This document shows, in pieces, positions 31,001 through 44,723 of a DNA stretch of 64,000 nt; the stretch's first letter is position 1; each line of letters opens with the position of its first letter. The stretch is from contig NW_027191405.1 in the NCBI RefSeq assembly GCF_041146345.1, positions 1,798,001 through 1,862,000 of the forward strand, given 5' to 3'. Made by a program: the position numbers and the translations under genes. The notes under the pieces are model-generated. The model did no database searches. It had not been told where the DNA came from and worked only from the letters and a program-made list of their open reading frames with translations. The DNA comes from Neodothiora populina (Eukaryota).

Positions 31001-31659
31001 CTGCAACACAAAGCGCCATGTAGCAGAAGAATGGTAACGTCCTACACAACGCGAAGAACATTGGTTTTTTCTTGCTGACCAAAAGACTGTATTCTGTATG
31101 GCTTGTCTGAAAGGATTCCTCGGATCAGCGATCGATCGCAGAGCTTAAAACACATCTACAGGACTTCCAAGTTTTTGGTATACCTCTGTACACATTTGGC
31201 AGTAAACTTCGTCAGCCAAGCACCGGATGGCTGTGTTTGCTCGACGCGACGATGCTTGGCCTGCACTTGGCACATGTTGCGCCCGGTTTCCAGTCGCAAC
31301 GGTGCGAGGGTAAGATGAACTGAGGGTGAAGATAGCACTGGGCTAGTACTTGTAGGGCAATAAACGCATACACATTGCCTCTCAATTGCAGAGTAAGAAA
31401 GTATGATGAAGAGCCTCTGAGCACTTGTAGGTGTCTCTGGTGTCCCCCTCTCCTGACATTCCGTCTTCTTCGTTGTGATCATCCCCCCTCCCTACCCCTC
31501 TACTGTAGGCAGAATCAACAGGAGAATTGAGTTTGTGTTGACATTCCAGATAACAAATTGGTGCTGAATCGAGCGTGTCATCAAAAAGTCCGAGATTAGG
31601 CATTCATCATACTAGGTAGCCACAGTAGCTAGCAAGCAAGGAAGCGAGCAGCGCGCAAC

Positions 31660-34243
31660 ATGAACTCAGACGCTGGCAAAAGTGCGCGGCGGGTCCTCGA
31701 TGAGACGCAACATCAACAGAACGATCTCTCGCGCCCAGACAGATTGGAACATAAACAAGAGCAAAACACACACTGGGGACCAACAGATGGTCCTGCCCAT
31801 CAAACCTCTGCCGGAGCAGCCCAGGAAGAATGGTCACATGTCACCGGTCGCGACGAGGAGCCTCAGTTTTCCGGAAATCACACTGTTCCGGCAAGTGCAA
31901 CCACTCAACCAGTGTCAAGTGACGCCAACGGTATTGGCAATGGCCCTCAGCTTGTGAACACAAGGAAAGGACTACAAGTCTTGTGCGGACCCCTCCTCAA
32001 TTACAGGCGCATGAGCAAGCAAGAGACAGATACCCCGATATGGCACGGTAGCGTTCTCATTGTCGCTACGGCTGGACAACAGCCTCCGCTTCTGAGACTC
32101 CAACATGCAGACGACGGCGATGGTTCATCGGTTACCAGCATCCAGGCCGAGAAGTTGTACGAAGATCCCAAGTCATCGTTCTGGCGCTTCGAGATCAATG
32201 TGCCCTTCTTACATCATGAATCGAGATGGGAGTACCATATCCCTGGCATAGAGTACGTTGACCCTAAGAAGACAATGTCTACAGGACCAAAAGTCTTCTC
32301 CGTGCCGTCCAAATTCGCTTCGATGAGAATCATGTTTCACTCCTGCAACGGCTTCTCCGTCGGTACTGATACGGACGCTTGGTCCGGATGTGCCTTGTGG
32401 AACGATGTCCTGCGTAATCACGAGAAAATCCCTTTTCATGTCATGATCGGTGGAGGCGACCAGATCTACAATGATGGTGTAAGAGTCGACGGTCCTCTCC
32501 GCCCCTGGACCGACATGGCATCTCCCCATAAGCGAAGAAAGTAAGTGATTCGTAAAGTGCCAAACCTCGACGTGCCGCTGACCACCTTTTACCAGCTTCC
32601 CTTTCAATGAAGAACTACGTGCCGCTTGTGATGAATATTACTTCAACAACTATGTGCGATGGTATGGAATCGAACCCTTTGCTTTCGCCAATTGCCAGAT
32701 CCCTCAGTTGAACATTTGGGACGACCATGACATTATCGATGGCTTTGGCTCGTACACCGATCACTTCATGCAGTGTGCAGTCTTCAGGGGTATCGGTGGT
32801 GTGGCACACAAGTACTATCTGCTCTTCCAGCATCACTTACCACCTCCCGTGAGCACCTTCACCACCGACGCTCCGCAAACCCTCCACGCCAACGCGCAAG
32901 GAACCAGCGATGCCGATGCCGTTCAACTGAAGGACACTTATGTCATGAAGACCGAGCACGAAGATCCCTCATACATTATTGGAACATCTCCTGGTCCATA
33001 TGTGGAAGAGCGCAGTCGCTCGATATATTGCCAACTCGGTGCTCGCGTCGCCTTTCTTGGTATCGACGCTCGCACCGAACGTACGAGGCATCAGATCAAT
33101 TATCCAGAGACTTACGACCAGGTCTTCTCGCGTACTTCGAAAGAGCTTGCGGCGAACCCGAACCTGAAACATCTGATCCTGCTTCTCGGAGTTCCAATCG
33201 CGTATCCCCGTCTTCAATGGCTGGAAAACATTCTTCAGTCACCAATCATTGGCCCCATCCGCTTCCTGAACAAGCGATTCGGTCTGGGAGGTGGCTTTTT
33301 CAACCACTTCGACGGAAACGTTGATTTGCTGGACGATCTAGACGATCACTACACTGCACATCAACACAAAAAGGAGCGCAGAGACTTGGTACACCGGCTG
33401 CAGCGTCTCGCCAAGAAGCACAACGTGCGCGTGTCAATCCTCGGTGGAGATGTCCATCTTGCAGCATTGGGCCGCTTCTACAGCAACCCAAAGCTGGGGA
33501 TCCCGGTGGAGAAAGATTGGAGATACATGCCCAACATCATCTCGAGCGCCATCACCAACAAGCCTCCGCCGTCTGTAGTCGCGAACCTTTTGGCTAAGAG
33601 AAACAAGATCCATCACTTGGACACGGAGACGGACGAGACGCTCCTGACGCTATTCGACCGCGATCCAGGGCACGGCAAAGACGGCGTCACCAGCAAAACA
33701 GCGGACAGCAACCACTGCACGATGCCGAGTCGCAACTACGCCATAATAAGCGAGAGCCACGACCTGACCAACTCCCCCTCGCTCGAGCGCGTAGCCAACG
33801 GCAATGGCGTCGCTCACGACCTCAACAACAACAGCACATCCCTGCGCCCACCACCGACCGCGAACGGCAGCATCTCGACCGCAGGCCACTCGGCCAACGG
33901 CGCCACAATCGCCTCGTCGGACCCCTCATCACGCCCCTCCACAACCGGCACCGCAGAGGACGGAACCAGCAGGCCCGCCACTGCCGCCGCCACCGACAAC
34001 AAAGGCGGAGCAGCCCCCAAGATCAACCCTCGAAACGCACTCCACGCCGGCGAGGAGCAAGCAGGCACTCAACACCCCGCAGCCAGCGGCCTGAGCAAGA
34101 CGGAGCTCGGAGGCGAGTTCGGCCTAGACGTCAGCTTCAGAGTGGAGATTTCGCCCAGTGATCGAGAGGGCCATACTGAGGGGTATGGGCTGACGATTCC
34201 TGCGTTGAGTGCGGAGAGATTCAGCAAGTCTGCTGCAAAGTAG
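31660..34243 (+). CDS. PhoD-like metallophosphatase (no signal peptide)
   Basis: MFHSCNG, GGGDQIYND, WDDHDIIDG, DARTERT, GGDVH motifs; intron 32541-32595. Confidence 0.88.
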
Positions 34244-36623: not shown

Positions 36624-38353
36624 GACGTAGGTAAAGCCGTCGAGCGGGCTGTCTCCTTCGGTATAGGGTGGTGGAGGCTCTCCGTCGTCGAGGTCCTTGT
36701 CCTTGGAAGAGGAAGGGTCTTTGCTGTCTCGTGGAAGAGCAGCTTTGGTGTCAGCGACGACTGCAGCAGCTGCCGAGGATGACGACGACTCTTCAAAGGG
36801 GGAGCCGGCGCAAAAGCAGGCGGCGGGTTCTCAGCAGAGACAGAGCCGGGAGTAGACTCAGGTGAGAAAGATGGAGGATCCTCCTGAGTGGGATAGTAAA
36901 GCGAGGGGAAGTTATGCGACGAGAACGGCGGTGGATCCGAAGAGTCGGCAGAGTCCTTGGGTTGATCTGAATCTACGGCTTCAGTTGACGCTGCTGTTGT
37001 TTCAGCGGGTCGTGGTGACGGTGTTGCTGTCTCTGTTATCACTGCTAGAGTAGCCGATGTGTCGATTTCGGGGGTCGAAAGTGTGGTTAACGAGTGATGA
37101 GGTGGAGGGGAAATCGACGACTTCTCGGGAGGCGGAGTGTCGTGAGGTGCAAATGAGCGTGTGGTAGGGATGGACGAATGCTCTGAATCCAATGCGGCGG
37201 TGACTCGAAATGTAATAGGTAAGTAGTGTTTCTGCTCCACTGTAGAGTCGAGCGGTCCAGCTTCAAGGGCAGATAGACGATACAGCAGCGCAGCTACTTG
37301 TTGTTATGTCACGCGAACGATCGCGATGTATATGTCTATGTAGAGAGCATCCGTGGGGCGGGGCAGTCTGCAGTAAGTGGAGGTGGAGGCGCTTGTGACA
37401 AGACTGCAGTATCGAAGATTATAGCTGTTTCTACACTCGGTGCGATCGAGAGGGCAGCGCTAGGTATATGAAGTCCGTTGTGGTGGATGAAGGAGAGAAC
37501 AAGGCAAAGGGAAGTGACACGGTGAGACAGGTAAAGAACAGACACGGGACGACGGTACAGCAGGAAATTATACAATACAGTATGGATGAAACGTTGAGCG
37601 AAGTGCACCAGTCGACCGTATTCCTGACACTTGTGAGCTGGTGTCAAGGACTTCTCTGATCGGAGACCAGAACGAGTGGCTAAGAAGGCTTATCAGGTGT
37701 ATATAATCTCGCACTCTGGCAAGTCATGTTGTCACGCTGCTTTGTGAGGCTAATACAACCCCGTACTGAGATACCGCTGCTACTCTGCAAATTGCCTGTG
37801 CTTCCGGTCCACCAGTCCGATCTTACTTGAAGGTCCAGTGTAGGAACTGACAGTAGCTGTACTGTGTGATACACCGAGATCGTACAACACAGCACAATAC
37901 CTACCTACCAATTAAGGTACAGTACCTACATTAGCAGCATAAGAGGGCTGGAGATTCGAACCTTAATCTGGCACATGTTCTTACAGTAAATAATGAATGC
38001 TTGCCTCATGATACCGTACTCATATATGTGATATCGTGCGTATTTATCATACCATATATCCCAATTTTATTCCAAGCTTGTCGTCTGTGCGAACCACCGC
38101 CGCGTAAACTGCGGCTTCTCGACATGCTCCGCTTTCTTTCTGCTTTAAATTCTCAGTTTGTGACAGCTTCTGAACTATTTCAATCCCCACTACCGTTTCT
38201 CAATCTGACCTCACACACACCACTTCCTGCCTCATATGCGAGCTATCACAGCGGACATGGCGCAGGTAGCTGTGTGTAGTCTTGGAGAGTCATTTGCGCG
38301 TAGTGGCTCCACGTAATGTAAGTCAAAAATCTCTCTCTTCATAGATTTGCACA

Positions 38354-38430
38354 CTGGGATGAACTTTTACCGAACAATCCAATTCCTATAGCGTCGTGAA
38401 GGATTATTTACTCTAGAATTACTCTGAGAA
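38354..38430 (+). ncRNA. Box C/D snoRNA, U45/SNORD45-like (18S Am at GGUAAmUUCUAGAG); second guide to 25S GUUGGAUUGUUC
   Basis: C-like GGGATGA 38356-38362, D CTGA 38424-38427 preceded by CTCTAGAATTAC (antisense to 18S GTAATTCTAGAG); GAACAATCCAA 38372-38382 antisense to 25S TTGGATTGTTC. Confidence 0.85.
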
Positions 38431-38686
38431 ACCTAGCAATCCATTTGTTCTACATCATCATTGATGAAAATGCTCATCGCTGACTTGCCATCTGCATTAG
38501 TTATCATCGTCGACACTCCATTCACTCTCGTCATGGACAATTTCTTCAAAGATTCGGTGTTACCTTCGTTGGTTCGACTCCTTGTTCTTTACATCAACAA
38601 ACCGGGCCTCGAATCTTGTCACAGCATTCGAGGCCCAACTCTTCAAAAGGTCAGTTTGAACAGAAATATCTTCCACTACACTTTCT

Positions 38687-38780
38687 TCTGTGATGAAATT
38701 ATGACACACGAATTGGCATTCCTCGACCTTAATATATCATGTCGAAACCGTCGCAATTAAGTTTCAGCCTTGTCTGACCT
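38687..38780 (+). ncRNA. snR41: Box C/D snoRNA snR41 (18S Gm1126; probably also Am541, yeast numbering)
   Basis: C GTGATGA 38690-38696; D CTGA 38774-38777 preceded by TTAAGTTTCAGCCTTG, a 16-nt antisense to 18S CAAGGCTGAAACTTAA with the D+5 rule landing on G; D' CTTA preceded by TTCCTCG. Confidence 0.92.
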
Positions 38781-38883
38781 CCTTTGAAAAATCACTTCTC
38801 CCATCGAAACCAATATTGCATGACTGTGTGCTGACATTGTCTGCTTTAGGTATCCCATCACTGCCACAATCCCTTGCCCCTCT

Positions 38884-39012
38884 TGCATGAAGAAAGTTTG
38901 AACGAACGGGCGGACTTAATGCCGTCTCGGTCGCCATCGGTAAACACGAGGCGTACAAACCTCGTCGATGGATGCGCCGGGAATTGCTTGCTGAGATGTC
39001 GTCACCTGATCC
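38884..39012 (+). ncRNA. snR70: Box C/D snoRNA snR70 (18S Cm1639)
   Basis: C ATGAAGA 38887-38893; guide ACGGGCGG before D' CTTA 38915-38918, antisense to 18S CCGCCCGT; internal ACGAGG/CCTCGT stem; D CTGA 39006-39009; lies between snR41 and snR51 as in the yeast cluster. Confidence 0.82.
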
Positions 39013-39133
39013 ACTTGCCAAACATACGCCTTCTGGAGAACCAAAATACAACATGACAAAATCTGTATACTAACCCCCATGCCTAGGTATGCTTTTCTCT
39101 CTCACCATCACACCGCAATGCAATCGCACATCT

Positions 39134-39227
39134 TAGATGATGAACAACCTTATTCACACTGTTTGACCGGACCAACTTGTAACGAGGTTGGTCTGGAATG
39201 AACATTAAACACTGAAAATTCTGATTT
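39134..39227 (+). ncRNA. snR51: Box C/D snoRNA snR51-like (25S Um2729 via D', Um2724 via D)
   Basis: C ATGATGA 39137-39143; TATTCACACTG before D' TTGA 39163-39166; 12-bp hairpin 39167-39196; ACACTGAAAAT before D CTGA 39221-39224; both guides antisense to 25S ATTTTCAGTGTGAATA. Confidence 0.88.
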
Positions 39228-39451
39228 AATGAGGTAAGCTCAACTCCAGCCTATGACAAAGCTCTTGTGGCTGACGTGCTAAAGCCTGATCCAGATGCTG
39301 CTATGCTTCTTTACCACCGAATTCGCTTCACGGACATCACTTCTTGATGAGTGAGCTGACCCCTCGGTGTAGTGAATCGAAAGAACGACTCGAAAATCTT
39401 CTTAGAGACGATATCATCGTAAGTTCATAATCTACATGCCCCTCCCCACCT

Positions 39452-39536
39452 ATCTGATGAACAAAGATATTCGCTGTGTTCTTCCTGAGACACGTCGTTG
39501 AAGACTACTATATCATTCACTTTGGAGACCTGACAA
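39452..39536 (+). ncRNA. Box C/D snoRNA with dual guides: 5.8S Am (GAAGAmACGCAGCGAA) and 25S Cm (GGUCUCmCAAGG, U55/SNORD55-like)
   Basis: C CTGATGA 39454-39460; TTCGCTGTGTTCTTC before D' CTGA 39485-39488; C' TTGAAGA; TTCACTTTGGAGAC before D CTGA 39530-39533 (one G-U pair in each duplex). Confidence 0.88.
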
Positions 39537-42500
39537 AAATCGCCATCATCATGCATATGCGATATTCCATACCTTTTGCGAGCAGATCACTGACATGTGA
39601 TGCAGATGCAGTGCCCTGAAGATCTTACTAGTTCTATAGCCCGCATAATCAAAAACTTCCCTGAAGGATAAAACCCTCATAGTAAACGTGATGAACCCGT
39701 GCATGTGGTAGCAAGTGTGATACTGCCACGCTAGCACTGTACTGTCACTCCCATATCGTCCTGCATATAAAATCATTCGATAGGCGTGTCTTTGGTGATG
39801 TGTTTCACTAATAAAATCGATGTGGTGTGGCAATCGCTTGGTTTGTATAAGACCGCTGCCATGTGGTGGTGCCTGCCCTGCCATCCCTTCAGTCCCGTGG
39901 TTACCGAGCCAATGGTATGGGTGGGCTACTTACTGTACCTTCAGGTACCTAGCCTAGGTGCTTTAGCTTCTCCAGGAGACACACGTCCCGCCGTCAATCT
40001 ATCAGGGTTCCACTGCATGTCATGGCTACTACTACCTCACCTCACATGCACATGCACATAGCTCGCTCAGGTGCCTTAATTCCATCCTAAACCACTACCG
40101 GGAAATTGATTCGCTGATACGAACACATGGTCTCGTACCTACTATACGTGCATCTAGATATAGGCAGACTTTCGTGCCTTTGTGTTCAATAATCTGATAG
40201 ATATACCTACTTGCTCATATATCTACCTTTCTTACCTCGCTGCATGTGGTATATGCATGGCAGGAGCATCACGAATGAATCCCATCACCGAAATCATCAA
40301 GTCTCATTGATGCTGACTGACCAATAGATCCCGTTCCGCTCAGTCCATGAATCTACCAAGCCCAATAATATGTCATCTGCTGGACATATGCGTATCATTT
40401 ATCTCCCTGTCTCATCTGTATCTGTTCAAGTTTACGGTAAACGGGCAAACGACTAAACCTCACTTTTTCCAATGTGAAGTCAAAGCCATAGAGACGAGCG
40501 TCACGAAAACATCATTCAATATCTTTTACGACATTGGCAAATGCAGTAAAGACAGGTGGATCGACAGATGGCAGGAATACCTAAGGAACTGTAACGCTGC
40601 TTGTTGAAGCTATGCTCTGTAGAGTCTTTGAACCTGAAGAGTAAAGTACTTGTCGAGATTTGATATTGGAGGGCATGTAATCGTCCGCTGGTGCTGTCAC
40701 TATCCCTGTTGCTGTCTGTTTTGTGGGACATGCCGTGATTCGTCTGCCAGAGAGATGCTGAGCTTTCCAATATGAGATCTATACCGTGCAATACACGCCT
40801 AGTTACCTTTAGCAAGGAATGCGAAAAGGCACTTAAAGCAATCAGCAGAACTATCCAGGAACACCACAGTACAACAACAATCTGCAAAAAGGCAGTATAA
40901 CACGCGATATGCCCACTCTACTTCCAAAAGGAAAGAAGAATGCATTGTCCCCTTCCCGTTACTCTTTTCCTTTGTGTTTCCAGAAAGAGCACTAGACTTT
41001 GACAGAAGGCACAGCATACCAATTCCAGTGATGCGTGCATTAGAATGGTTGATCTGCAGAGATGCTGGTTCTAACTATACATACGTAAATACATATGCGG
41101 AAGAAAAAGGTGTCAAGAAGATAAATTGCTCCAGGAAAAAGTGAATGTGGACAGGCGGATTGGACAGGAACAGAGCTCGGAAGATGATTTCATCACATAT
41201 TAAGGTAAAATAGATGGACGGGTGTCCGACTGGCTCTGGCTTGTTGGCTGCTGGGTCTTGACTTGTCTTACTAGGTAACGCATGTTGTTACCAAAGAGGT
41301 CTGGTACGGGGCAGAATAATAAGGGGAGGCAAAAAGACAATACGACTACTACCGCTACAATGCGCGATCGTGTCCGGGTCATAAGGCTCCTCCAAAAGCA
41401 CGAGCTTCGCGCGTGACGGTATAAGGTGGAGGGGGGGACAGTAGCATGTGGTCGCTCGTCACGGCTGGGTGCATATCGGAACGGAGCAGGAGGGAGGATG
41501 AGAAAACCATAGGGAAAACGTCACTCACTCTTTGGACGGAAACGCTATAGGTTGGTTACACAAGGGCTTTTTTTTGGCAGCATGGGGGGCGGGCGGCGTG
41601 GTTGGTCGCAGGTGGCCTAGCGCACATTCCCATCATTCACCCTACCCACGCTTTCGGTCGCTGGAATTTTCCCACATGCCCGCTTAACCAGCTGGCTGTT
41701 CTTGAAGACGCTTTTGATGTTGTCGGAGAATGATATCCCTGCCTTCGGGTTATCTATACATCAAGCAATGTGACAATTCGGGGACGACCAGTATCGCCAA
41801 GAGGTGAGAAAACCGTGGCACTAAGGGTGGTGTCGATTTGAAACACCACGTCAGTCAATCGACTGGGAGTCGTCCCCTGGGGCAGTCAATAACATCGAAG
41901 CTAGATCTGATCGTGCGCAATGAGCATCGGTCGAAGACGGCCTCAAGCCACATGGTCTACTATCAAGCGAGCTCCCCGAGAAAAGCATAAGAGTGACGAT
42001 GTGCAGTCGAGCAATAGTGCCTGTGATTCGTTTCTTGGAATGTGCGTTTGTCTCATTGACCAACTGCACGTTTGCGTCCACTGACTTAGTGATGATTACG
42101 AAGTGCACTTCATTTACTCCGCATGTGGGTGATGAGTACCCTAAGCGCTGCAGTCGATGGATGTGCCGCTGCATGCAGCCCAGGATCTCGTAGATCGGTA
42201 GCCACAGCGGAGGCGAATATGCATGCTTTCGTAGTAGTATGATCCCAGCCCTTTGGTAGTGGCGTAATTTGTCCTGCAGTCCTTCCTAACTGAAGGTGAT
42301 GGATTTTCATAGCGGACCACACAACAGCAGAAGTATGACCTGTTCAGACAAGGCATATGTTAGGAATGTCGGGCTTTGAATCAATTCTTCGACGGACCAA
42401 GTAGCCTTACATTTTAGAAGATTCATAGGGGCAGCTTGGGAAGATACAAACTTGAGCAGAGGTTACGCATCCGGTCATGCTCGTCCGAATCCATTCGTCT

Positions 42501-43229: not shown

Positions 43230-44723
43230 ATGTCTACATCCAGATCCAAGCAGTCCGCCAATCTGGTGTCAGATCAGGGCGAACTTGAATACAGCCTTCA
43301 ATATGTTGCGCAGCACAACGCCGAGCAGGACAAATACGTGTATATGGTGGACCCCCCATCGGCGGCCTTGGGTCTCCCCTCATACCAAGCCCCAGAACAC
43401 GCCAATGTAGAAGCAGGTCCCGTCAGTCTACTTGTCTTAGATGAGTAAGGATGCGAATTGACGATTGTGTAGAGCACCTATGATGATCCTTACAAGGATA
43501 TCAGAGAAGAGGAGTACCAGTACTCCGATATGTCCATGCAGACTGGCTCCACTAACCATACGCCCTCGACCCCGTACTCAATTGCTGGCCGTAGTACCCG
43601 AAGCAAAAGAGCAACGCCGCGGACCGACTCACCCATTAGTCCTGGCACAACGGGTCCAGCAGCAAAAGCCAAGGGGAAGAAGAGGGCGAGGAAGGAGCTG
43701 CCTTCAGAGTATCAGCTCAAGGTTCCCTTTTCACTGCTCGAAGTAAATTGGGGCAACATACCACTCAAAGCAGTGCACCAACGCGCACAGTGGTCACAAT
43801 CGGAACGGAAGAGCCAGGCGACGAAAAAGGATGGCCGGATAGCTCGCCCGATGAACTGTTTCATGCTGTATCGGGCGGCATGGGCAGATCGCTGTAAGCA
43901 CTACTTCAAAATCTCCAACCATCAGCTGGTCTCGGCCATTTGTGCATACAGCTGGAATCTGGAGCCCAAAGAGGTGCAATCGCAGTGGAGGATGTTATCA
44001 AAGCAAGAAAGTGATAATCACAAGGCTCATCTGCCGGGGTATCGATACCAACCATCTAAGCCATTAGGCAAACGGGAGCACGAAGACTCTGAGAACGAAG
44101 GATATGGTGTCGATGGTGACCCTGATGGGGATTATGTACCCTCGGGACGACAAACGAAGCAGGCTAAGCGTCAGCAGCCGCACCCGATCGAATATCTCTC
44201 GACAACACCTTACGCATCAGACCCTTACAATGCTCCGGTGCAGACAGAAGGGAACGCACAAGGGTCTCAGATGATCCCGTACAACCAATGGCAGCCATAC
44301 TTCGGTCAAGATGGACACTACTTGTCGGCCCAGAACCAATGGCAGACTGGCATCGGAGAAGCTAGAATGGTGAACAGCACTCCCGTTTCGACCTACTCCG
44401 CCAGTGATGGATTGGTGGGACTGCCGGGTGGCCCCCACCTAGACATGGCTTATCAGTCCCGCACGCATACACCGATGAGCCAATACCAACAGCAAGCTCG
44501 GCCAGAGGATAGCTTCCATAATCAGAACGCGATTGCGTATCGAGAGCACGAACTCCAGGCGAGCACCGACCCTGGCTTTGGGATGAATATCGGCCATGAA
44601 TCGCACTTTACGGAAGCGATGGGTGGATATGGAAATGTCATCCATCAGGACTGGACGGCAGAGATCGATCCGTTATTGAATGATGGGTTTCCTTCCGAAT
44701 ACCCATTCGGGATGAATCAATAG
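43230..44723 (+). CDS. MATA_HMG/Ste11-type HMG-box transcription factor (not MAT1-2-1)
   Basis: RIARPMNCFMLYR...NHQLVSAICAYSWNLEP...HKAHLPGYRYQP; intron 43422-43472 (GTCAGT..TTGAC..TAG) links an upstream exon in phase 0; start codon uncertain. Confidence 0.85.

Follow-up and report, generated by a model that had tools for sequence, protein, structure and literature searches.

A probable snoRNA cluster III host gene with abutting introns and a split snR51-like snoRNA in Neodothiora populina

A stretch of 64,000 nucleotides (nt) from Neodothiora populina (contig NW_027191405.1 of assembly GCF_041146345.1, positions 1,798,001 to 1,862,000), called the window here and numbered from its first letter, contains five units resembling box C/D small nucleolar RNAs (snoRNAs) on the plus strand within positions 38318–39605, as seen by Rfam, motif scanning, pairing with 18S ribosomal RNA (rRNA) and comparison with homologues. 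From 5′ to 3′ they are U45-like, snR41-like, snR70-like, snR51-like and U55-like; the observation of five box C/D snoRNAs at this place, made in a preliminary description of the window, is confirmed. Judged from its sequence, the locus is very probably the host gene of the conserved fungal snoRNA “cluster III” in the form typical of Pezizomycotina (“Euascomycetes”), with the five C/D snoRNAs as its sole products. Cluster III is defined as snR41-snR70-snR51 (Luo et al. 2013, PLoS One 8:e58547, PMC3596301); according to the sections of that paper devoted to it, all of its snoRNAs are intronic in Euascomycetes, U45- and U55-associated introns lie at both cluster ends in nearly all of them, two interior exons are missing in all Euascomycete species, and an “intron B” interrupts snR51 between the antisense element and box D. 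The features of this form that were tested were found in the window: the order of the snoRNAs, three abutting introns (I to III), an intron B in the snR51-like gene, and a poorly conserved host poor in open reading frames (ORFs). The layout at 38318–39605 is therefore already published for filamentous fungi of this group, and the preliminary description was a correct rediscovery of it. The yeast order that it had pointed out is kept, with order and guides matching those published for relatives, and its two extra members, a U45-like unit upstream and a 5.8S/U55-like unit downstream, hold up as well; the novelty it implied does not, as both end introns and the intronic position of all snoRNAs had been described.

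Motif scanning and a table of signal distances revealed six sets of donor, branch and acceptor sites and five pairs of C and D boxes. The introns and the two places at which introns meet are:

38318..38500, plus strand: intron A, 183 nt, with snoRNA 1; GTAAGT at 38318, GCTGAC at 38479, TTAG ending at 38500
38650..38849, plus strand: intron I, 200 nt, with snoRNA 2; AAG/GTCAGT at 38650, GCTGAC at 38830, TTTAG ending at 38849
38850..39086, plus strand: intron II, 237 nt, with snoRNA 3; GTATCC at 38850, TACTAAC at 39069, CCTAG ending at 39086
39087..39372, plus strand: intron III, 286 nt, with the split snoRNA 4; GTATGC at 39087, GCTGAC at 39355, TGTAG ending at 39372
39234..39284, plus strand: intron B, 51 nt, nested in intron III and without a snoRNA; GAG/GTAAGC at 39234, GCTGAC at 39270, AAG ending at 39284, then CCTGA
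39419..39605, plus strand: intron C, 187 nt, with snoRNA 5; GTAAGT at 39419, ACTGAC at 39589, TGCAG ending at 39605
38849..38850, plus strand: junction 1, TTTAG/GTATCC, where the AG of intron I abuts the GT of intron II
39086..39087, plus strand: junction 2, CCTAG/GTATGC, where the AG of intron II abuts the GT of intron III

The branch-like motif in the introns is CTRAC, followed by AG, and the spacing is uniform: 35–50 nt separate the 5′ splice site from the C box, 56–70 nt the D box from the branch adenosine, and 72–83 nt the D box from the 3′ splice site. Five introns, each with one C/D snoRNA, had been described before; the five intron-borne snoRNAs are there, but introns I, II and III abut with zero-length exons at 38849/38850 and 39086/39087, and the sixth, nested intron had been overlooked.

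Homologues were collected by a metagenome scan with the snR41-like guide plus its D box, which gave at least 113 loci, and in many of these colinear pieces of all five snoRNAs were found with blastn. Column conservation over distinct loci (28 for snoRNA 1, 86 for snoRNA 2, 62 for snoRNA 3 and 34 for snoRNA 5) is about 90–100% in boxes and guides, the remainder being variable; in snoRNA 3 this level is reached by a 19-nt stretch around the guide, and TCGTCA-N-CTGA is conserved too. A three-way alignment with the two closest loci (L013 and L072) shows nearly identical snoRNAs and differing exons and intron flanks. In both of these loci a branch motif and an AG are found at the place homologous to the end of intron III. 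An end of this intron at CAG, 39294, was considered and ranked lower than 39372: it would leave 5 nt between the D box and the 3′ splice site, as opposed to 83 nt, a distance like that in the other introns, and 39372 is preferred partly because a helix flanking snoRNA 4 (CATCT/AGATG, see below) crosses the CAG at 39294.

At junction 1, 67 of 69 distinct loci, one of which is the window itself, show AG/GT 64–95 nt past the snR41-like D box; L112 has AG/GTCCGT, and L008, a locus that looks unrelated downstream, has no junction. For junction 2, an AGGT occurs in 52 of 54 distinct loci, again counting the window, and 44 of these have a branch motif 5–45 nt upstream; the sequence around both junctions varies freely. 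L011 has no such junction and L012 has AG/GC. The close relative of the latter, L026, has AG/GT at this place, and the AG/GC may be a GC donor or a disabled donor. Because the GT is conserved at the junctions as well as the AG, the inner donors appear to be real and a stepwise removal of the introns is favoured. The host would be a single RNA polymerase II transcript without coding function, with the snoRNAs cut from its introns. Most likely, the abutting introns would be removed one by one from the 5′ side; each joining of the AAG end of exon 2 to the GT behind an AG would rebuild a donor for the next step, so that each snoRNA would receive its own lariat, to be debranched and then trimmed to a small nucleolar ribonucleoprotein. 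Among 42 spliced products represented by expressed sequence tags (ESTs) in Luo et al. 2013 (PMC3596301), 18 lacked intron I only, 14 lacked introns I and II, and 10 lacked all three, while none had lost an inner intron alone; these patterns fit 5′-to-3′ stepwise removal. The same authors name another scheme as compatible with their EST and RT-PCR (polymerase chain reaction after reverse transcription) data, in which one donor (38650 in the window) picks any of three acceptors (38849, 39086 or 39372) and a large lariat may hold two or three snoRNAs. For the window this is unlikely: if only acceptors mattered, one would not expect 67 of 69 and 52 of 54 distinct loci to retain the GT behind the inner AG, usually as part of a good donor such as GTA(T/C/A), and the distance of each snoRNA to its own branch site is about constant.

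The five units, all on the plus strand, are built as follows:

38351..38429, plus strand: snoRNA 1, U45-like; C box GGGATGA 38356–38362, D′ guide 38372–38383, D′ box CCTA 38385–38388, D guide 38411–38423, D box 38424–38427
38686..38779, plus strand: snoRNA 2, snR41-like (Afu_455; Neurospora crassa CD9); C box 38690–38696, D guide 38757–38772, D box 38774–38777
38882..39011, plus strand: snoRNA 3, snR70-like; C box ATGAAGA 38887–38893, guide core 38906–38913, D′ box CTTA 38915–38918, GTACAAA 38953–38959, inner CTGA 38991–38994, D box 39006–39009
39129..39297, plus strand: snoRNA 4, snR51-like (N. crassa CD6; Aspergillus fumigatus Afu-277), with its flanking helix; C box 39137–39143, D′ guide 39151–39161, D′ box TTGA 39163–39166
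39209..39289, plus strand: 3′ part of snoRNA 4; snR67-like guide 39209–39220, internal CTGA 39221–39224, 18S guide 39221–39233 plus 39285, D box 39286–39289
39450..39536, plus strand: snoRNA 5, U55-like (Afu_294); C box CTGATGA 39454–39460, D′ guide 39472–39484, D′ box CTGA 39485–39488, D guide 39516–39529, D box 39530–39533

All five have a C box near the 5′ end and a D box near the 3′ end, two of the C boxes (GGGATGA in unit 1, ATGAAGA in unit 3) being one base off. Rfam was run at gathering scores on the whole 64-kb window and in a relaxed manner (E up to 10) on 37900–40100. At the gathering level it finds only two C/D snoRNAs in the window: Afu_455 (RF01860) at 38686–38779 with 75.7 bits (cut-off 48; model 1–92 of 92), and Afu_294 (RF01506) at 39450–39536 with 61.2 bits (cut-off 43; model 1–83 of 83). 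In the relaxed run the Afu_455 stretch also matches snR41 (RF01218), with 22.3 bits and thus below threshold. The five units are predicted to be box C/D snoRNAs, with expected sizes in order of about 75, 90, 125, 105 and 85 nt; homologues have been cloned in N. crassa and A. fumigatus. That homologues in these relatives were cloned as complementary DNA, and some seen on northern blots, supports the assignment of the locus to cluster III.

Pairing with 18S rRNA was assessed against L146, a contaminant contig in a bacterial assembly which holds a complete eukaryotic 18S (Rfam, 1785 bits); it came from a genome-contig scan with a 15-mer, which returned at least 92 loci, and was the only complete one of ten short contigs tested by Rfam. 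Watson-Crick runs beside D boxes measure 13 nt in snoRNA 1, 16 nt in snoRNA 2 and, after splicing, 15 nt in snoRNA 4, whereas snoRNA 3 has an 8-nt core beside its D′ box. For 500 shuffles of the five joined snoRNAs, longest runs of 8, 9, 10, 11, 12 and 13 nt came up 26, 235, 169, 53, 11 and 6 times, respectively, and the duplex energies of the 18S guides in snoRNAs 1, 2 and 4 were each equalled by 0 of 20 shuffles. As a negative control, guides expected to act on 26S or 5.8S rRNA pair with 18S no better than shuffles do. Targets in 26S and 5.8S rRNA were assigned by comparison with published guides of relatives. A search for the 5.8S family, confined to the assembly of L146, gave three weak matches (41–44 bits, two of the three in long contigs) and no eukaryotic 5.8S; the three are taken for 5′ ends of bacterial 23S. 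A guide-pattern search in five assemblies holding 18S contigs gave three one-mismatch matches, the expected one being absent, and neither a eukaryotic 5.8S nor a eukaryotic LSU came to light in such assemblies. Scanning viral contigs for the snR41-like guide yielded two loci, neither with an Rfam family. As a side observation, all ten short contigs (L146, L131, L190, L168, L162, L133, L151, L165, L153 and L130), which stem from public bacterial assemblies, are eukaryotic 18S by Rfam and hence contamination.

The D guide of snoRNA 1 pairs with L146 151–163 and ends directly at the CTGA D box, and its GGGATGA C box recurs in L013 and L072. Its D and D′ guides match the N. crassa CD17 duplexes for 18S-Am154 and 26S-Gm2875, respectively; snoRNA 1 is the orthologue of CD17, and its predicted targets are 18S-A154 and 26S-G2875 (N. 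crassa numbering). In snoRNA 2, the run pairs with L146 1126–1141 and ends one base before the D box; CD9 forms a duplex for 18S-Gm1122, Afu-455 has been assigned Gm1122, and 18S-G1122 is the predicted target here. The D′ region of snoRNA 2 (38716–38735, GCATTCCTC, then CTTAAT) is 70–90% conserved in 86 distinct loci; it has no run of at least 9 nt with the 18S of L146 and no convincing target, and none is given for its counterparts in the snoRNA lists of Liu et al. 2009 or Jöchl et al. 2008 (cited in full below).

The core of snoRNA 3 pairs with CCGCCCGT at L146 1641–1648. The fifth nucleotide before the CTTA D′ box faces C1644, the site expected for snR70, and the predicted target is the C in CCGC of the 18S decoding region. 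The conserved GTACAAA (38953–38959) can pair with 18S just 5′ of this target. Of the two CTGA motifs, it is the one at 39006, not that at 38991, that homologues conserve as terminal D box; the fifth position of the C box varies among them. The short conserved element TCGTCA (within 38992–39005) just before the terminal D box has no convincing target.

The D′ guide of snoRNA 5 has the same 5.8S adenosine facing its fifth base as N. crassa CD29, and the predicted targets are 5.8S-A42/43 and 26S-C1851 (A. fumigatus numbering). An 11-nt match to 18S (39495–39505) was rejected as a guide, as no box follows it, it overlaps a conserved C′-like TGAAGA, and runs of at least 11 nt occur in 70 of 500 shuffles. 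The earlier figure of up to nine predicted methylation sites is about right: eight guides match the fetched 18S or a published duplex or target of relatives, and two more conserved elements are without an assigned target.

The snR51-like gene is split by the 51-nt intron B between its 18S guide and its D box. Unspliced, its run with 18S is 13 nt; without 39234–39284 it reaches 15 nt (L146 96–110). The duplex of CD6 at the D′ box is that of 26S-Um2687, and the snR67-like guide in the 3′ part of snoRNA 4 shares its core with the CD49 duplex for 26S-Um2682; predicted targets are 26S-U2687, 26S-U2682 and 18S-A97/A100. Intron B would have to be spliced out for the 18S guide to adjoin the D box. Among 56 distinct loci it is found at exactly the place seen in the window in 42 and is slid in 2, while 7 are unsplit, with guide and D box contiguous, and 5 lack the 18S guide within the searched range, one of which (L048) has it further downstream. 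In the two slid cases (L020 and L021), intron B is shifted by 3 nt relative to the other loci and the spliced guide-plus-D-box sequence is unchanged; this reads as a clear-cut example of an intron that slid while selection acted on the spliced product. Further, a helix forms between the sequence 5′ of box C and that 3′ of the D box downstream of intron B (CATCT 39129–39133 with AGATG 39293–39297 in the window). It is present in most loci with different sequences and reaches 10–12 base pairs (bp), again with differing sequences, in L004, L018, L027, L074 and L076; over 42 loci the best helix averages 6.45 bp, versus 4.77 bp in 2000 mismatched flank pairs, a control that includes related loci and is hence generous.

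The internal CTGA (39221–39224) is both the start of the 18S guide and a D box for the snR67-like guide, and in the relaxed Rfam run snR67 matches the snR51-like stretch with 23.8 bits. The snR67-like guide is present in none of the 7 unsplit loci, in 34 of 44 split ones and in 4 of the 5 without an 18S guide in the searched range; these 56 loci are related and the counts not independent. It is possible, albeit rather doubtful, that the snR51-like locus gives two guide RNAs depending on the splice route. Upon removal of intron B the terminal D box (39286–39289) would adjoin the 18S guide; if intron B were kept, or if intron III were cut at the acceptor of intron B, the RNA could end at the internal CTGA, which would then serve as the D box for the snR67-like guide, directed to a 26S uridine five bases from the target of the D′ guide. 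In that case the proportion of 18S to 26S methylation guides from the locus would be determined by splicing. The parts of such a scheme have each been described before, and the switch would be the new element.

Less probable again is an RNA that stops at the internal CTGA and from which intron B is not spliced at all; it would guide only the two neighbouring 26S uridines, and the 18S guide and the downstream CCTGA would be a relic. The guide before the internal CTGA, found in 38 of the 56 distinct loci, does have the CD49 core for 26S-Um2682, Rfam aligns snR67 end to end up to the internal CTGA, and four loci (L033, L043, L077 and L078) have the snR67-like guide while no 18S guide lies in the searched range. 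Against this, 44 split loci, including the two in which the intron has slid, retain the spliced guide-plus-D sequence, and the covarying flanking helix pairs with the sequence after the terminal and not the internal D box. In addition, the cloned CD6 of N. crassa reaches beyond the internal CTGA and includes the 18S guide in full (Liu et al. 2009, PMC2780460), and Afu-277 (100 nt) has been assigned 18S-Am97 (Jöchl et al. 2008, PMC2377427). The lineages of the four loci just named may have no D box but the internal CTGA.

The exons of the host, all on the plus strand and non-coding, are given here with their outer limits guessed:

38100..38317, plus strand: putative first exon of the non-coding host, ending AAT/GTAAGT; start guessed, 5′ end unmapped
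38501..38649, plus strand: exon 2, 149 nt, non-coding
39373..39418, plus strand: exon 3, 46 nt, non-coding; follows the TGTAG ending at 39372 and runs up to ATC/GTAAGT at 39419; poorly conserved
39606..39830, plus strand: putative last exon, with AATAAA at 39810; unconserved, end guessed, 3′ end unmapped

The first exon is unconserved even in the closest homologues L013 and L072, exon 2 has diverged in both, and neither exon 2 nor 39295–39418 has a blastn match in any of the at least 113 metagenome loci. The longest ORF starting with ATG in the spliced model, whose outer ends are guessed, has 51 codons; with exons so little conserved, the claim of a non-coding host made in the preliminary description is borne out. 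That this ORF encodes a small protein and the snoRNAs are mere passengers is very improbable, given exons that are unmatched in the homologous loci and diverged in the closest relatives, whose snoRNAs are 87–91% identical, and hosts of this kind described as having little coding potential (Liu et al. 2009, PMC2780460; Luo et al. 2013, PMC3596301). Equally far-fetched is an unspliced polycistronic precursor cut by endonuclease and exonucleases, as in Saccharomyces cerevisiae, where snR41-snR70-snR51 comes from unspliced primary transcripts (Luo et al. 2013, PMC3596301): the splice-like motifs would then be there by chance, yet the six regularly spaced sets are conserved in dozens of loci with otherwise variable intron sequence, the Euascomycete cluster snoRNAs are all intronic with EST support in the same paper, and the split snR51-like gene needs splicing to bring its 18S guide beside the D box.

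Several points weigh against reading the locus as cluster III with five functional snoRNAs and stepwise splicing. The Infernal/Rfam check proposed in the preliminary description turned out mixed: beside the two units above threshold, snR51 (RF01214) matches 39133–39236 over its full length (model 1–98 of 98) with 33 bits versus a cut-off of 44, at E up to 10 only, and units 1 and 3 (38350–38430 and 38880–39010, plus strand) have no Rfam match at E up to 10, snR70 and U45 (SNORD45) included. The terminal D box of the snR51 model falls in the gap created by intron B, and the shared guides argue for snR51 homology despite the low score. For units 1 and 3, the names U45-like and snR70-like were chosen from guide targets and from Luo et al. 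2013 and Liu et al. 2009, as Rfam gives no match. The C boxes of snoRNA 1 (G for U) and of snoRNA 3 (ATGAAGA) are variant. The duplex energy of snoRNA 3, which has only its 8-nt perfect core, is equalled by 10 of 20 shuffles, and because of this its target assignment rests on conservation and homology. The five assigned targets in 26S and 5.8S rRNA rest on identity with published guides. Both transcript ends of the host, and the end of intron III at 39372 instead of 39294, are putative, and transcription of the host, the order of splicing and methylation are likewise predicted from the sequence. Finally, the data of Luo et al. 2013 (PMC3596301) do not separate stepwise splicing from the use of one donor with three acceptors.

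The locus lies in a region with no recognisable protein genes; five ORFs tested between 35274 and 42285 have no Pfam match. One open frame on the minus strand (39549–39929, 126 codons) overlaps intron C and the last exon, has no Pfam match and is probably spurious. The nearest Pfam matches upstream are to PhoD-like phosphatase in two ORFs on the plus strand (31633–32544 and 32582–34243), and the PhoD-related phosphatase gene spread over them (31633–34243) probably carries an intron; the nearest one downstream is an HMG-box ORF (43473–44723, plus strand).

For annotation this means that an apparently empty region of about 1.7 kb would be a single non-coding gene that has six introns and encodes five snoRNAs, which standard pipelines miss, Rfam finding two of the five snoRNAs at threshold. 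For biology the locus adds a further example of an arrangement in print since 2013 and otherwise nothing new. The comparison over some 50–85 distinct metagenomic loci adds independent sequence support for the inner donors, the intron splitting snR51, and a flanking helix dependent on the D box downstream.

Compared with cluster III as presented by Luo et al. 2013 (PMC3596301), the window has the same order of snoRNAs, the same end introns, the “intron-intron-intron” arrangement, intron B and a poorly conserved non-coding host, so that no structural difference is apparent from that account; introns A, B and C of the window are its “intron A”, “intron B” and “intron C”. Two observations have no counterpart in its main-text sections on cluster III: covariation in the helix around snR51, and the shifted position of intron B in two loci. 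In N. crassa (Liu et al. 2009, BMC Genomics 10:515, PMC2780460), for which duplexes of CD17, CD9, CD6 (with the D′ box TTGA) and CD49 are shown, 5.8S-Am42 was mapped by primer extension for CD29, and the host is UHG-like and was confirmed by RT-PCR. There, CD17, CD9 and CD6 correspond to snoRNAs 1, 2 and 4 of the window, with the same guide cores and box spacing, and the CD6 clone ends at the same GAG/gua as is found at 39233/39234. Differences are that CD6 is called exon-encoded and is without the snR67-like guide, which is on the separate snoRNA CD49, and that no snR70-like or U55-like member is listed in the description of the N. crassa cluster.

In A. fumigatus, Afu-455 and Afu-277, together with Afu-294, form one cluster (Jöchl et al. 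2008, NAR 36:2677, PMC2377427) and correspond to snoRNAs 2, 4 and 5, respectively. Afu-455 is assigned Gm1122 in 18S, Afu-277 Um2706 in 26S and Am97 in 18S, and Afu-294, cloned 7 times and giving an 80-nt northern band, Cm1851 in 26S and Am43 in 5.8S; for Afu-455 and Afu-294 these targets agree with the guides in the window. The cluster is described as intergenic, without an intron model, and the U45-like and snR70-like units are not among the snoRNAs listed for it. A novel non-coding RNA candidate from the same interval, Afu-336, has a 130-nt northern band that fits the size of the snR70-like unit and may be this member, a guess from size and interval.

The cluster of S. cerevisiae has the same three snoRNAs in the same order and shares the guides for the 18S G and A sites and the 26S U site; it differs in being unspliced and without U45-like and U55-like members, in a second 18S guide in its snR41, and in an snR51 that is unsplit and without the snR67-like guide. 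The zero-length exons of the window resemble the ratchet points of recursive splicing in long introns of Drosophila and vertebrates, where AG/GT rebuilds a 5′ splice site at each step. Ratchet points serve to remove very long introns, whereas the introns concerned here have 200–290 nt, and the likely benefit would be one lariat per snoRNA.

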